From NCBI GenBank assembly GCA_951406725.2, contig OX597814.1, forward strand, positions 120,590,001 through 120,654,000: a stretch of 64,000 nt of DNA, read 5' to 3'. This DNA is from Octopus vulgaris. Lineage: Eukaryota. The notes under the pieces were generated by a model. The model had not been told where the DNA came from, did no database searches, and was given only the letters and a program-made list of their open reading frames with translations. Every line of letters begins with the position of its first letter. Position 1 is the stretch's first letter. Shown here one piece after another: positions 5,997 through 20,537 of this stretch. The position numbers and the translations under genes are program-made.

Positions 5997-6181
5997 GATA
6001 GATCGCTAGCCACTACACATTTTTATTTTCTCCCCTCGTTTCTTTCTGTGTTCTCTTCTGTGGAAGAGCGTAGGCTCGAAAGGTTAAATAATTTTTGACT
6101 TCTCGAGCGTTAAACTAATACATCTAATTGTTGTCTACACCACCTGTCTTTGTCTTTTGCTTTTTCGTGTGAATTCTCCCT
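5997..6181 (+). mobile_element. Short repeat family carrying a minimal HHR-like motif (A6U core), copy 1
   Basis: gatagatcgctagccactacac...CTGTGGAAGAGCGTAGGCTCGAAA...; homologous to 13741, 16843, 20338; ends at a microsatellite. Confidence 0.75.
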
Positions 6182-6197
6182 ACATGCATACATCTAT

Positions 6198-7106
6198 ATA
6201 TCTATCTATCTATCTATCTATCTATCTATCTATCTATCTATCTATCTATCTATCTATCTATCTATCTATCTATCTATCTATATATATATATATATATATA
6301 TATATATATATATATACAGCGCAGGAGTGACTGTGTCGTAAGAAGATTGCTTCCTAACCACATGGTTCCCAGTTCAGTCCCAATGCGTGACACCTTGAGC
6401 ATATGACTTCTATAGCCACGGACCGACCGCAGCCTTGTGAGTGGATTTGGTAGACGGAAACTGAAAAAAAGCCCGTCGTATATATATATGTATATATATA
6501 TATATATATATATGAACTTTTTTCTCTCCTTGTTTCTTTCTGTGTTCTCTATCTATCTATCTATCTATCTATCTATCTATCTATCTATCTATCTATCTAT
6601 ATATATATATATATATATATATATATATATATATATATACAGCGCAGGAGTGACTGTGTCGTAAGAAGATTGCTTCCTAACCACATGGTTCCCAGTTCAG
6701 TCCCAATGCGTGACACCTTGAGCATATGACTTCTATAGCCACGGACCGACCGCAGCCTTGTGAGTGGATTTGGTAGACGGAAACTGAAAAAAAGCCCGTC
6801 GTATATATATATGTATATATATATATATATATATATGAACTTTTTTCTCTCCTTGTTTCTTTCTGTGTTCTCTATCTATCTATCTATCTATCTATCTATC
6901 TATCTATCTATCTATCTATCTATCTATCTATATATATATATATATATATATATATATATATATATATATATATACAGCGCAGGAGTGGCTGTGTCGTAAG
7001 AAGATTGTTTCCCAACCACATGGTTCCCAGTTCAGTCCCAATGCGTGGCACCTTGAGCATATGACTTCTATAGCCACGGACCGACCGCAGCCTTGTGAGT
7101 GGATTG
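6198..7106 (+). repeat. Tandem triplication (~323-335 bp units) of (TCTA)n(TA)n plus a SINE family B head
   Basis: SINE heads agcgcaggagtg..gtgtcgtaagaag start at about 6318, 6641 and 6976 and are nearly identical. Confidence 0.9.
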
Positions 7107-8185
7107 TAGATATAGATGTATTGGCTTAAGTTTTTCATTGTTTGATTTGCCTAATAGTGGTTTTATCTCTAATTTAATGTAATATATATATGTGTGTGTG
7201 TGTGTGTGTGTGTGTGTAAATATATATATGCATATATAAATATATATACATATATATATATATATATATATATATATAGAGAGAGAGAGAGAGAGAGGGG
7301 GGAGAGAGGAGGAGAAGAGATAGAGCTGAGAGAGTGTGAAAGTGCGGGAGTAGTTTTATAATAACATGAAACCGATGTTGCTACAGAATTTCATTTAAGA
7401 TTATGATCGTTTCAACTATACATCACTACACATCACTATATACTAAACAATATTGTTTACGTAAATCCATACAGTATTCAGTTAATAAGTAGAAAAATAA
7501 TTGAACGTAGCAGTTTGCCATTCTCATGAACCCTTTTGTTTATTATGGTGGATTTAAAGAGTTTCCAACAAGCAACGAAATTGGAGCAGCATAGTATCAG
7601 AGCTATTATCATTAAGTCTTTTTTTCTCTTAAAGATAATTCAGTAGATAGTGATTGTAAATAATAGAAATATTATTAACAATCTTTGATTTGGTTTAAAC
7701 TCTCCATAACACTGCCTAACATATAAAGGAGATATAAAGTTTAAATGCAACCTTGTACTGTGAATAGAGAGAAAAGAAATTCTCTACTATACAGTTAGTA
7801 ATAACTATACAGTTATTAATGAAGTGATAGTAACGGAAGGGTAGTATGCTTATAGTTTAATGTAAAGGAAAAATTTGAAAGTAGCTAAATGATAAAAGAA
7901 GAACGGTTATGTTGTACGTCGTAATGGATATATATATCTCCTATTTCTATTGCTAAATCTGGATACTAAAAGGATACTTATCAAGATGGATTAAATTAGA
8001 TGTGGTATTGATGGTATTGCTTGAAGGGGTATGTTAAAGGGATGATTCAAGGAGAGAAATACTGAATTCATAAAAAGAGAACATAGGCATTACATAGTTG
8101 AACTGCATTATGAAAGATTTTTATATAGAAATTTTAAGAAGGTTTTATCAGATAAGTGTGCGAGACTAATTCATATCGAATTTCG

Positions 8186-8365
8186 GGGGGGGGGGGTAAG
8201 TCGGTTACATCGACCCCAGAGCGTAACTGGTATTTTTTTAATCGAACTCGAAATGATGACAGGCAAAGCCGACCTCGGTGGAATTTGAACTCAGTACGTA
8301 AAGACGGACGAAATAACGCTAAGTATTTCGCCCACCATGCAAAAGAGCCTGCCAACTCACCGCTT
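8186..8365 (-). mobile_element. SINE family A copy
   Basis: Matches family A head and central domain. Confidence 0.8.
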
Positions 8366-8384
8366 TAATAATAAAAAAATAATC

Positions 8385-8466
8385 ATCATAATAATAATAA
8401 TAATAATAATAATAATCATCATCATAATAATAATAATAATAATAATAATAATAATAATAATAATAA
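8385..8466. repeat. (AAT)n microsatellite
   Basis: Visible trinucleotide tract. Confidence 0.95.
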
Positions 8467-17030: not shown

Positions 17031-18449
17031 TATATATATATATATATATATGCATATATATGCAGAACTCAGTTAATATCTCAGATCTGGTGGCACTTGC
17101 TACATCATTAAGTGTTAAAGTGTTAAATATCTAAATTCATATAAAAGGGAAAGAAGTATTATATTCGCACTCTCACACAATAACTAGTCGTGAGCATACA
17201 ACTGCTTTCTTAACTTTGCTGGGTTTATTGATATTTTTTCAAATTTCTTTTGTGCACCTTAGTCTTATTTGAAAATAATTATTTACAAATACTATGTTAT
17301 TTGATAAACAAGAGAAATCAAGTTTAGTACAATATAGAATAGAAGCCAGTAACGTGGTTACCCATTATATTATAGAAAATGTATTACACATGCTCGAAGA
17401 CAAGTCCTTGAGTAATAATTGCAAGTGCATCATTTTGCTTGCATGCGAGCTTCCACAATTATTTGACCATAATATTGCTCTTATTATCCCTAATAATTTA
17501 ACAATTTCTTCTTTGTTACTCTCACTTCGATTATAAACATTTTGTAATTTGAATGAATGTAATGTCAGCACATAGGCTAAGTCAAAATAAAACCGATTTT
17601 GTTTCCAATATTTGATTATAGTTACGAAAAATGTTTCGACCAGATATGGAACCAGCATATCAACATCCCTTTCTACAGTAATTCTCTTTCAGTACGAGCC
17701 TATTGAGAGTTTTTCGAGCTACTAATAAATGTTTATGCATTTGTTCTTGTGAAAAAAAAATTCTCTGGTCTCGGATTTGAATTTTGAATGTACATCTTAC
17801 CTCACATAATCAATAATAATTAACATTAGCATCGAGTATTGGGTATGCCTTCTTCCTCTCAGCACACACATGGGGCGCAAACAGATGCACACACACACAC
17901 ACACATATATATATATATATACATACACACACACACACATATATATATATATATACACACACACACACATATATATATATAAAAATATGTATATATATAT
18001 GTATGTATTTATATATATATATGTGTGTGTATATATTCAGATATATATACATATGCACATATATATGTGTATACACACGCATTTATATATATATATATAT
18101 ATATATATATATATATATCCTCACTATCAGTGTATGAAGTACATTTAGCATCAGTTTTCACTAATTTCTAATAGTCAAATTTATGTAGATTCTATAGCGA
18201 TAGGAATTTTGACTACTAGGTTTTCACGTCAGCAGGTGCGTGCCAATTTCCGTTTTTGTAATGAAATGGATGTAGAATTTATCATCCAAAATTTAAACGT
18301 GGAAGAGCTTAGATTACCACGTCTGAACCATTGTGTTATATTTTATTAGTGTTTTTTTTTTCCTTTGCATTTGTTTTAGCATAATATTGTTTGTTTCGTT
18401 ATCGCTTATTTTTACGAAGAATTTTATGCAGTAGCAATGTATTATTTCC

Positions 18450-18800
18450 GAATATTTCTTTGATTCTATTTTGTTGTCTCTGGCATACTAAATTGTGAAT
18501 GCAGGTTATTGTAAATGCATGGCGAACCTAGAAGACAATGCTGCACAAGGCCAACGTAGGAGCTGGTGTCATGAAGTGTATAACTCACAATAATATTTGT
18601 ACATTAGATTGGTAATTTGTCGTTCGTTATCCAATATATATGCTTGTGGTTTGATATCAATTAAGGGTTTCTGCTTTTGATGTTTTTTTGTAATATACTA
18701 TTAGTTTTTGTTTATAGTCTGGTGTGATAAATTTTGCATTTCCTTTTATGAAGTTTTTGACTGTCTGTTCGACAGTGGTTCAGCTTTTGATTCATATAAT
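18450..18800 (-). pseudogene. Possible decayed Penelope-like RT fragment
   Basis: Frameshifted remnants loosely resembling PLE RT motifs (KPL..YI.D; AP.Y..L). Confidence 0.25.
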
Positions 18801-19659
18801 AAATTTTATGTGCAATTTATGTAGTTTTAATGGGTGAACTCTCTGAGGTATATATGACATTATATTTGCGGATGTAGTCCTCTATAGATCGGTTACTATA
18901 CCGTGTCTATCGTCTATATATCTATGATTTATTCTGTTAATTTCTCTCTCATGTATATGCACGAGAATTTGAATGTTCTTCCAAATAGCAATTTTATCTC
19001 TGACCTGTTTGTAGATGCGTGATTATCCACTGTCTCCATCTATGCGCTTATTTCCTTCTTTGGTGTACTCTGATATTTCTTACCTGTGTTTTTCTAAATA
19101 TAGTTCTGAATTTTGTCTAAATCGGAATTCTCTTTGTATTATTCGGGATCATATATCTTAGCAAGTAATTTAGTTTCTCAAACTGTGTAATGTATCCATT
19201 ACAACTACTATATCGACTATGCCTCTGCTGTATGTGATATATTTATGTTTGATATTAATGTTTACAAATGCGGATAGACACAGATCCTAAGGGGAAAATA
19301 TCTGAATTCCTCATCTGTATAAGTTAAATAAGAAGTAGCGAAAGGGTACTTCAGTTGTGTACGATATTCTTTCATTCTTTTTGTTATTATATTCGTTTCA
19401 GGCATGGAGCTATGGTCATACTGGAGTACCATATAAGTGGTGTTCTTTCAATGTTTTTTCTAGTAAGTATACTTACTTAATATGTCCCTCAGTAATGCCA
19501 CTGGAACGTTGGTAAACACGCTTTCTACACTGGAATTGGTAACTATGTTATCAAGTTTCTCATTTATATGTAGAAACTCCTCATCTGATATTCTATGGCA
19601 TTTTCAGATGAATACTCATTACCAAAACTGCAAAATGATGCTAAAACAAGCACACACAA

Positions 19660-19980
19660 CACAGAAAATAAACATATGACTTCTGTCACAGAAGCTTAAC
19701 GTTAAACATATCTGGAAAGTAAAGCCGACATAATTCTGACAAGTACAACATCAACAGTCTCATCACGGAGCTCAACAAAGAAATATATTCATAAAAGTAT
19801 TCCAACTATGTTTAAATACATTTGGGAGACAAAGTTAGGCAACAATGTCTACAGAAATTATTCTCACGTCACATAGCAGCAGTAATACACAGGTATTTCA
19901 TCTAAACTGGCTTTGCCCTCAATGACCTCACGCTAAGACGCACAAAAGTAGAAAATATCTCGTACCATATAAATGTTTCC
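19660..19980 (+). pseudogene. Decayed Penelope-like GIY-YIG endonuclease fragment
   Basis: Reads TYLES (YIG-like) then KSIPTMFKYIWETK, matching the T.LSKYIWELK motif of PLE endonucleases. Confidence 0.45.
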
Positions 19981-20337
19981 CGGATGGATATCTCCAGCAA
20001 ATCCCAGATAAACCACCTGCTCTCAAATATATCTCTTCACACAGTATCTAAGATTATACGTAAAATGTCTTTCTTTTGCCAGGTGTTACTATTAAATTGT
20101 CTTGGCCTGAGCCAATCGTGGCCGAATTTAATCTAAGCTTTTGTACGTGTATATGTAGTAGGTCCTGTGGGAGTGTGTTTATTGTGTGTTTTTGTGTGGG
20201 CGTGGGCGTGTTTGCGTGTGTATTTAAGAAGAAAGGCATACGTATATAGTTTTACTTATGTTTTAAATAAATAGATTTTTGTACACATATATATGTGTCT
20301 AACTGTGTATATATATAAATATATATGTATATATTTC

Positions 20338-20537
20338 GCCATGATTCATCGCTAGACACTAAACATTCTATATTTTCTCTCTCTGCTTATTTCTGTGTTC
20401 CTTTCTATTGAAGAGCTTAGGCTCGAAACGTAAAAGACTTTCTCACTTCCCGAGCGTTAGACTAATACATCTGCTTGTTGTTTAAACAACCATCTTCGTC
20501 TGTTATTTGCTTTTGTTTTTGTAAATTCCAACTATTT
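20338..20537 (+). mobile_element. Short A6U-HHR repeat family, copy 4 (motif 20401-20436)
   Basis: CTTT-CTATTGA-A-GAGC ttag GCTC-GAAAC GTA-AAAG; ends at (TA)n. Confidence 0.75.

Follow-up and report, generated by a model that had tools for sequence, protein, structure and literature searches.

Metazoan Penelope-like elements (PLEs) carry minimal type I hammerhead ribozymes in their pseudo-LTRs; these are mostly solitary and combine a palindromic stem III with dimer dependence, and those with A at core position 6 (A6) cleave poorly even as dimers (PMC4209133). The core variant reported among them is U3-A8 (PMC4209133). A6 itself is found in 56/56 representatives in Fig. S3 of that paper and in 34/34 rows of File S2 of PMC8557442, but in both cases the descriptor required it. 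For the anole PLE, cutting by the hammerhead requires protein, the chief substrate is uncut RNA, and reverse transcription starts 85-92 nt past the cut site, at AT-rich targets (PMC11167929). PLE hammerheads are poor cutters in vitro, and in the sole reconstituted system they are dispensable for insertion.

Position 6 has been studied in other hammerheads. Low activity persists in a natural A6C variant (kobs <0.1 per min; PMC3088659, section 8). A6C switches the preference to Mn2+, with good activity (kobs ~0.2-0.3 per min), and in a type II hammerhead the rate falls to as little as 3.55e-6 per min in 0.3 mM Mg2+ (PMC7151607). When mutants of a type III hammerhead were scanned in pairs, all single changes in the CUGA turn were low in activity and only a C3/G8 swap gave rescue, as far as the available portion of PMC9901934 extends. 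No family-wide U6 hammerhead was found in the literature covered, which did not extend to a key 2017 survey.

In the 64-kb window (the whole stretch of DNA analysed), the four hammerhead-like motifs of ~35 nt that had been predicted were each found in place, with spans within a base of the limits given, and the hammerhead register assigned to them was correct (Table 1). A 20-nt core word matches four times in the window with 0-1 mismatches and never in 100 dinucleotide shuffles; the four motifs are genuine and beyond chance. The family majority matches the canonical core, C3 U4 G5 A6 N7 G8 A9 ... G12 A13 A14, except that A6 is replaced by U, and the predicted U at position 6 is present in 4/4 copies. 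A15.1, U16.1, an extra A after A9 and the G10.1-C11.1 pair are likewise present in all four, and H17 is U, U, U and A in copies 1-4, respectively. An alternative register, reading AAGA as A6-N7-G8-A9, was discarded because no G10.1-C11.1 stem remains under it and because a site at which all four letters occur (see below) suits the original register. Apart from the defects listed in Table 1, two outer stem I pairs are gone in copy 1, the outer stem I pair is gone in copy 3 and one loop base is altered in copy 4. The string originally quoted as shared holds as a consensus but is present exactly in 0/4 copies, and the ACGT palindrome proposed for stem III is seen in three of the four, copy 1 being the exception. 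Only copy 3 passes a strict minimal-hammerhead descriptor with one core mismatch allowed; on 10 shuffled windows the same descriptor gave no strict and 0-1 loose matches.

Table 1. Positions of the hammerhead-like motifs, of the parts of motif 3 and of the repeat that carries them
Feature	Position	Strand	Remarks
Motif 1	6054..6089	+	U6 at 6061; C15.2G breaks ACGT palindrome
Motif 2	13832..13867	-	U6 at 13860; one stem II mismatch (A.A)
Motif 3	16903..16938	+	U6 at 16910
Motif 4	20401..20436	+	G5A, U6 at 20408, U7, A17
Motif 3, stem I	16903-06/16935-38	+	hammerhead register
Motif 3, core	C3 16907, U6 16910, N7 16911, G8 16912, A9 16913	+	
Motif 3, extra A after A9	16914	+	
Motif 3, stem II	16915-18/16923-26	+	
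Motif 3, G12	16927	+	
Motif 3, ACGT	16930-33	+	
Motif 3, predicted cut	after H17 at 16934	+	
Repeat copy 1	5993..6180	+	nhmmer E 8e-59, BLAST; ends in TA/TATC microsatellite
Repeat copy 2	13741..13895	-	BLAST, nhmmer; shortest 5' end; both sides TA-rich
Repeat copy 3	16841-17027 by BLAST/nhmmer; 16765..17027 with family extension	+	longest; ends in (TA)n
Repeat copy 4	20335..20531	+	BLAST, nhmmer; most diverged; both sides TA-rich
Pyrimidine-tract fragment of repeat	6510..6549	+	E 0.004-0.005; stops just before motif; ~36-40 nt, near these coordinates
Second pyrimidine-tract fragment	6833-6872		E 0.004-0.005; ~36-40 nt, near these coordinates

The unit of repetition is not the ~35-nt motif, as had been supposed, but an abundant interspersed repeat of ~190 nt (nhmmer, BLAST), of which the motif is the best-conserved 36 nt. 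This longer, 3'-anchored repeat was overlooked in the original prediction. The four copies are the only full ones in the whole 64-kb window. Depth and loose ends in public contigs show that family sequence runs upstream of copy 3 to at least 16765, the true 5' end not being found, and the two pyrimidine-tract fragments belong to a 323-bp tandem duplication. All four copies have a common 3' end, 86-92 nt plus ~9 nt after H17 (~95-100 nt), in TA-rich repeats. Their 5' ends differ, two lying within a few bases of each other, and copy 1 is 5'-truncated against a LINE RT fragment of opposite orientation (RVT_1, 5579-6022, minus). Thus the repeat has a PLE-type end anatomy: a fixed 3' end near the hammerhead, variable 5' truncation, no poly(A) and an AT-rich or microsatellite target. 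Each copy keeps the whole motif, none starts at the predicted cut site, and the copies are solitary, with no tandem array in positions 1-25000 or elsewhere in the window.

Because this anatomy and the layout of the motif match the minimal type I hammerheads of PLE pseudo-LTRs, the repeat is very probably the 3' pseudo-LTR end of a PLE family; that the motif descends from a hammerhead is more probable still. With the metazoan PLE hammerheads of PMC4209133 it shares a U-rich 5' flank, a 4-bp stem I, an unpaired base after A9, G10.1-C11.1, the lack of a loop 3, the palindromic ACGU, and dispersed, mostly solitary copies in thousands per genome. The layout equals the published consensus (text and Fig. 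S3 of that paper) everywhere except at position 6, so that the differences are the U6 throughout the family here and the lack of a linked ORF. The Poseidon element PAc of Anolis carolinensis (PMC11167929) also has its hammerhead ~90-100 nt before the 3' end of the insertion, AT-rich targets, and insertions that keep the uncut motif. However, the PAc ORF begins at stem II and its hammerhead has been shown to cut with protein, whereas the motif here has neither ATG nor ORF. The octopus elements Hydra-1_Obim, Naiad_Obim and Naiad_Ovul (PMC8557442 supplements) share the preference for (TA)n insertion, and copies of Hydra-1_Obim likewise end at one site soon after the hammerhead, although the core of that element is canonical (A6), its stem III is longer and its sequence differs. 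Identity with the published octopus Naiad or Hydra elements was considered and set aside, exact words of the repeat being absent from the supplement of PMC8557442, in which line breaks can hide matches.

The animal non-LTR retrozymes (PMC7229834; bioRxiv 10.64898/2026.07.22.740005) are also short, non-coding and PLE-related, with a type I hammerhead. They are, however, tandem units with mostly canonical hammerheads, whereas the four copies here are solitary and 5'-truncated with a minimal motif; assignment to this class (150-400 nt tandem repeats with a type I hammerhead) was rejected on finding no array within the window, though the genome may have arrays elsewhere. The A6C hammerhead of phage Bcep176 (PMC3088659, PMC7151607) resembles the motif in having a natural pyrimidine at position 6 and the rest of the core intact, but there C6 sits at a lone phage locus assayed as one RNA, whereas U6 here belongs to a high-copy animal repeat with a minimal dimer-type layout.

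No RT or GIY-YIG gene linked to the family was found. The frames upstream of copy 3 have no homologue in Pfam, two word-index searches or Atlas, and HMMER over 1.84 billion proteins returned one spurious spidroin match only. A minus-strand ORF in this region was rejected: its 6 stops in 271 codons are not unusual (<=6 in 9/107 windows), and homology searches with it were blank or spurious. Copy 3 may break off before reaching the ORF; alternatively, it may be non-autonomous.

The variation of the family was followed in contigs from four public runs at a likeness of at least 80% (10,982, 14,754, 12,543 and 3,560 contigs). No run listed as carrying the sequence is labelled RNA, though X23 may be one. 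A6 has <4% of depth in three runs (X1, X3 and X23), where change-type tallies exclude T>A at 16910 at >=4%, and probably <9% in the fourth; the tally for run X17 holds one T>A place not tied to any site. U6 is therefore a family trait and not copy decay, as predicted, and the four-run data support this well outside the window. Position 7 carries all four letters (A 4-30%, C 13-17%, T 21-40%, G 20-41%) and varies more than any other of the 266 sites, at 1.66-1.97 bits against <=1.0 for the next. This site coincides exactly with the free N in CUGANGA, an a priori chance of 1 in 266. Among the variants listed (the best 40 of 60, the others probably having 4-9% shares), position 17 is A or T, with no G, and the extra A after A9 is invariant. 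So are 3/4 loop 2 bases, which argues for constraint on the sequence as well as on the fold. G8, G12, A9, A13, A14 and A15.1-U16.1 are intact in the family majority, though seed matching may force invariance within 16912-16933 (not at 16903-16910), and variation resumes at once outside stem I (16901 and 16902, up to 25%). Within the motif, 1/29 constrained positions are polymorphic against 3/7 free ones (Fisher p 0.018). A free position 7, a held core and A/U at 17 make up what is, in sequence terms, the pattern of a maintained hammerhead core; in cricket satellite hammerheads, variation at 7 with core and stems held was taken as constraint (accessible part of PMC2837043). Summed depth, which is not copy number, is highest on the motif, 2.3-23 times that of three flank bins, and loose contig ends join different flanks to one and the same motif. 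The motif also occurs in a run labelled as another organism, in which only 0.09 of the words from positions 15000-21000 are present. A family word was not found in metagenome, viral or prokaryote collections.

The stems are conserved in sequence, with 87.5% of cells paired in the four-copy alignment, but they show no covariation: compensatory changes were found at 0/8 pairs in the four copies and at none among the contig rows listed, so support for the fold comes from homology and the N7/H17 pattern. Folding predictions form stem II in isolated motifs 1, 3 and 4 (P 0.9-1.0) and leave stem I essentially unformed in monomers of copies 1-3, with scores of -6.3 kcal/mol for the double-hammerhead fold and -14.4 kcal/mol for a pair of folded monomers. 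The palindromic stem III suggests that the motif depends on dimer formation. Rfam gave no hammerhead match on copy 3 at E up to 10, and the best 150 of its 363 window matches are of microsatellite type, with no hammerhead among them. A downstream ‘lock’ hairpin (GCUCG with CGAGC) was rejected, since copy 1 alone has it in strong form (z -3.3) and copies 2-4 have z >0.

Tentatively, and at a little short of an even chance, we take the motif to be an attenuated minimal type I hammerhead that would cut only with two paired motifs and the element's protein. Selection quite probably acts on the motif in source elements, and it seems somewhat likelier than otherwise that U6 itself is under constraint. 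The family-wide U6 is predicted as likely to slow self-cleavage; the prediction that some self-cleavage remains is evenly poised. Two pseudo-LTR motifs on a source transcript would pair through ACGU, and slow cleavage would leave the RNA mostly uncut (or re-ligated). Reverse transcription of this RNA would begin at a point ~100 nt further downstream, with insertion into TA-rich DNA, giving solitary 5'-truncated copies with the whole motif, which would decay afterwards.

It is rather unlikely that the motif has stopped cutting and that its fold or exact sequence persists as a signal by which the PLE reverse transcriptase-endonuclease binds or is positioned, U6 disabling self-destruction or being read by the protein. 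Insertion by the anole PLE in vitro is unaffected by hammerhead catalytic mutants and no RNA-seq ends were found at its cut site (PMC11167929); here, the motif is intact in 4/4 copies and no loose end at 16935 is among those listed (24 of 1016). Conservation of the stems and most of loop 2 without covariation, and the weakness of position-6 mutants in published hammerheads (PMC7151607 and the accessible parts of PMC9901934 and PMC3088659), would also suit such a signal. On the other hand, most of the family keeps every catalytic residue, the C3-G8 pair and a cleavable base 17, with position 7 saturated, as expected if chemistry still matters; this is modest evidence, because only two states are seen at 17. 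The protein-binding region of the anole PLE, moreover, maps to the first 172 nt of the ORF, which is not shown to be the hammerhead (PMC11167929). Less likely again is that U6 arose in a single source element as a founder change, neutral or slightly deleterious, and was massively amplified, with the motif a passenger and position 6 unselected. U6 invariance by itself could be such a founder effect, because polymorphism is not significantly lower at the constrained motif sites than in the flanks (1/29 vs 24/230, p 0.20; vs 24/170, p 0.088) and 206/230 flank sites are invariant too at the 9% display level. Naiad PLEs have spread without canonical hammerheads (accessible part of PMC8557442), and A6U arises sporadically by decay elsewhere. 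Yet at least three changes at position 7 are required among the source lineages, as against none above the display level at C3-U4-G5-U6 or in stem I, and the motif is common to subfamilies with different flanks and to the run labelled as another organism.

Full ribozyme competence of the U6 core, restored either by a compensatory contact (with loop 2, say, or the extra A that follows A9) or by a changed preference for metals, is very unlikely. The Mn2+ preference of A6C (PMC7151607) and the invariance of the extra A and three loop bases in the contig variants listed are in its favour, but in the available portion of PMC9901934 no double mutant in the complete pairwise scan rescued the CUGA turn (except the C3/G8 swap), and even A6 minimal PLE hammerheads are poor as dimers (PMC4209133). 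It is most improbable that there is no selection on an RNA fold at all, the 36-mer being derived from an old hammerhead but serving as a signal in DNA or in splicing, with a mutational hotspot at position 7 (caused, for example, by RT misreading of a modified base). The intron of the D. virilis Penelope does end at helix I (PMC4209133). Covariation is not seen, and a long pyrimidine tract reaches U6, as at a splice acceptor; but the variable positions are exactly the hammerhead-free ones (7, 17, loop 2 and outside stem I). The -4 site of the splice acceptor consensus is free, but the nearest fixed AG dinucleotides, as the sequence reads, do not put position 7 there.

Should U6 be a neutral founder change, this would be a PLE-type repeat of the ordinary sort whose ribozyme is impaired. 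For the attenuated, protein-dependent hammerhead, a stronger form, which we consider doubtful, is that a PLE lineage has fixed CUGUNGA and actively maintains it over many thousands of copies and in more than one species, as a protein- or metal-gated switch damped at position 6 to which CUGANGA descriptors are blind. Whole families can escape descriptor searches that require CUGANGA, and the present one may be one of several hidden U6-type families in animals, including PLEs recorded as hammerhead-less. A saturated free position 7 and a fixed damaging position 6 in a high-copy family amount to a natural experiment in which cutting can be told apart from folding.

A viral-contig control was uninformative, stems being present in 0/102 distinct U6 and 1/93 distinct A6 pattern matches among those listed. 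A relaxed metagenome scan gave 11 matches, eight of them judged chance, with a 6-bp stem I in two (L239 and L240) and a 6-bp stem II only in L248; such U6 matches are leads only. In L239, U6 as a family trait was rejected in favour of copy decay, since an inverted twin with A6 and an intact stem II lies beside the U6 copy. L240, a fish-like contig, has a U6 motif with perfect stems.

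Direct reading of the window confirmed that four hammerhead-like motifs lie where the original prediction had placed them, and a 20-nt word from copy 3 of the repeat matched at exactly these four sites with at most one mismatch, and not at all in 100 shuffles. The predicted T at core position 6, where the canonical hammerhead has A (U6 and A6, respectively), is present in all four. The string quoted with the prediction, (C)TTT-CTGTGGA-A-GAGC gtag GCTC-GAAAC GT(T/A)-AAA(G), leaves the four sites recognisable but is found exactly in none; each copy carries a change (see table), and a strict hammerhead descriptor with one core mismatch was passed by copy 3 only. 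By its layout the motif seems to behave like the minimal hammerhead of a Penelope-like element (PLE), as a predicted ribozyme only. Because its core has U in place of A6, and because cleavage is only predicted, it is filed as a variant motif and not as a proven ribozyme.

Coordinates of the repeat copies, their motifs and other features (window positions unless a metagenome contig is named)
Feature	Position	Strand	Remark
Copy 1 (motif)	5993-6180 (6054-6089)	+	ACGT palindrome broken
Copy 2 (motif)	13741-13895 (13832-13867)	-	mismatch within stem II
Copy 3 (motif)	16841-17027 (16903-16938)	+	outer stem I pair lost; family sequence upstream to at least 16765
Copy 4 (motif)	20335-20531 (20401-20436)	+	G5A
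Copy 1 hairpin	6074-6109		z -3.3
Tandem array, 323 bp, 2.7 units	6213-7105		
A-rich frame	15795-16607	-	6 stops in 271 codons
Frameshifted remnant	57800-58617	-	
LINE RT fragments (RVT_1)	4994-6022; 44261-45726	-; -	related pair
Other abundant short repeats	2230-2447, 35040-35244, 42722-42937, 53537-53755 and others; 22330-22400, 31178-31248		
Inverted repeat, 268 nt	24269-24536 / 25407-25674		100%
Inverted repeat, 107 nt	49108-49214 / 49824-49930		98%
Contig L240, U6 minimal hammerhead	2455-2504	-	perfect stems, 6-bp stem I, C17; fish-like contig
Contig L239, head-to-head inverted pair of minimal hammerheads	2844-3104		arms 93% complementary
Contig L248, U6 core	715-767	+	6-bp stem II, without stem I

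The wider family was sampled by placing contigs of four public sequencing runs on window 16765-17030: X1 and X23 (organism label A; X23 RNA by guess), X3 (B) and X17 (E), the last being a run in which only 0.09 of the words from window 15000-21000 occur. The number of contigs placed per run (3,560-14,754) is no measure of copy number and shows that the family is very large. Differences were displayed for 40 of 60 places, each reaching at least 9.07% in some run, and the remaining 20 probably have shares of 4-9%. A6 makes up less than 4% of the depth in X1, X3 and X23, where the places already identified account for every T>A in the tallies of change types, and therefore U6 is a family trait, as had been claimed, common to at least one other organism label. 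In X17, one T>A place has no position attached in the tallies.

Four of the 36 motif positions are among the displayed differences: positions 7 and 17, the first base of loop 2 and the outer base of stem I. At position 7 each run contains all four letters (1.66-1.97 bits, against at most 1.0 at the next site), position 17 is A or T, and the majority G at the outer stem I base brings back the C-G pair lost in copy 3. In the published work, position 7 is the core position left free and position 17 must not be G (PMC7151607, PMC2837043). Since the single four-way site among 266 falls on position 7, the hammerhead register is confirmed, and maintenance of the core geometry by the source elements is suggested. 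Constrained motif sites are less polymorphic than free ones (1/29 versus 3/7, p 0.018) and do not differ significantly from the flanks (p 0.20 and 0.088); three loop bases are likewise invariant. Mapping seeds may enforce invariance at 16912-16933, C3-U4-G5-U6 and stem I being exempt. Variation starts again immediately outside stem I. Contig depth is highest over the motif, flank depth being lowered by private changes of copy 3 or poly-T indels, and loose contig ends join other flanks to it, both consistent with a motif common to several subfamilies.

The motif lies in a repeat of about 190 nt, delimited by BLAST and a profile built from the four copies, which found no further full copy across the 64-kb window. 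Pairwise identity of the copies reaches 0.87 within the motif, compared with 0.79 and 0.80 for the flanks. All copies share their 3' end, which lies 86-92 nt plus about 9 nt beyond the predicted cleavage position and passes into (TA)n or TA/TATC repeats without poly(A). The window itself is eukaryotic DNA, rich in AT and dense in microsatellites. The 5' ends are not alike: copies 2 and 4 start inside TA-rich sequence, copy 1 adjoins a LINE RT fragment in opposite orientation, and contigs extend copy 3 upstream. Copies 1 and 4 are truncated at 5' ends within a few bases of each other (5993 and 20335) though the family extends upstream, which may point to a site where stopping is favoured or to a short version that is non-autonomous. 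The tandem array contains a SINE-like repeat, microsatellites and a pyrimidine-tract fragment of the element, about 36-40 nt long, that stops just 5' of the motif position.

Covariation was looked for among the four copies and not found. In folding models, motifs 1, 3 and 4 taken alone form stem II; stem I is mostly unformed. Without tertiary terms, the model scores the double hammerhead at -6.3 kcal/mol and a pair of folded monomers at -14.4. A downstream CGAGC, which can pair with the stem II 3' strand and G12, is able to compete for GCUCG, strongly in copy 1 only. Unaided folding into the active form thus looks unfavourable, like that of published minimal hammerheads.

Our preferred reading, held with slightly less than even confidence, is that the motif would be an attenuated ribozyme inside a PLE pseudo-LTR. 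The layout is identical to the published consensus of minimal PLE hammerheads except at position 6, and those hammerheads are described as cleaving weakly and only as dimers (PMC4209133). For an anole PLE, the hammerhead cut is reported to need protein, the main substrate is uncut RNA and targets are AT-rich; reverse transcription starts at ORF nucleotides 111-118 and the cut lies at +26, hence 85-92 nt upstream, a spacing close to that in the window repeat (PMC11167929). The letter at position 6 matters for activity: a natural A6C hammerhead has a kobs below 0.1 per min (PMC3088659), A6C in another scaffold gives 3.55e-6 per min in 0.3 mM Mg2+ versus 0.18 in Mn2+ (PMC7151607), and every single mutant of the CUGA turn is weak in a pairwise scan (PMC9901934). 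No measured rate for A6U was found in the literature examined. A slow, gated cut would account for kept catalytic residues together with insertions carrying the whole motif. A further reading, of U6 as an actively maintained protein- or metal-gated switch, is rather unlikely. The same whole-motif insertions, and conservation at the level of sequence, would fit a non-cutting fold kept as a signal, which we consider rather unlikely; the weak contrast between motif and flanks fits U6 as a founder effect, less probable again.

The octopus repeat is real and explained in kind, with one well-supported oddity. In a literature search, neither a hammerhead family with U6 throughout nor any study of an octopus hammerhead turned up; the survey of Lunse, Weinberg and Breaker (2017), the Terminon paper, the inactive variants of PMC3088659 Fig. 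S7 and repeat libraries lay outside its scope, and libraries such as Dfam, Repbase or Zenodo probably already catalogue the repeat itself. Among PLE hammerheads in published tables, 56/56 and 34/34 have A6, but their descriptors had required A6. Metagenomes gave 11 matches outside the window. The U6 motif in L240 has the GAGC/GCTC stem II of the octopus motif. The L239 pair joins a canonical A6 motif with a 5-bp stem II to a U6 twin with a damaged stem II, and because this U6 copy has an A6 inverted twin, U6 also arises sporadically through decay. The L248 motif is similar to Latimeria(1), a PLE motif of the coelacanth shown in Fig. S3 of PMC4209133.

The PLE origin of the repeat rests on anatomy; homology searches found no RT or endonuclease gene linked to it. 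Penelope-like families are reported as recently active in Octopus vulgaris (PMC13282606), and the U6 repeat differs from the published octopus Hydra element, which has a canonical A6 core in other sequence (PMC8557442). By the definition of retrozymes through tandem units, the copies in the window do not belong to them (PMC7229834; bioRxiv 2026.07.22.740005). For the A-rich frame just upstream of copy 3 no homologue turned up; it may come from an element body, in inverted orientation, or be unrelated. The frameshifted remnant resembles by eye the thumb, cysteine linker and endonuclease start of a Neptune-type PLE; Pfam, homologue and Atlas searches gave no match to it, and no hammerhead motif was found nearby.

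The first of the two LINE RT fragments is the one adjoining copy 1. The other short repeat families of the window are presumably octopus SINEs, and one has a tRNA-like head that was not called by ARAGORN. The arms of both near-perfect inverted repeats are about 0.6-0.9 kb apart, an arrangement as for young non-autonomous DNA transposons.
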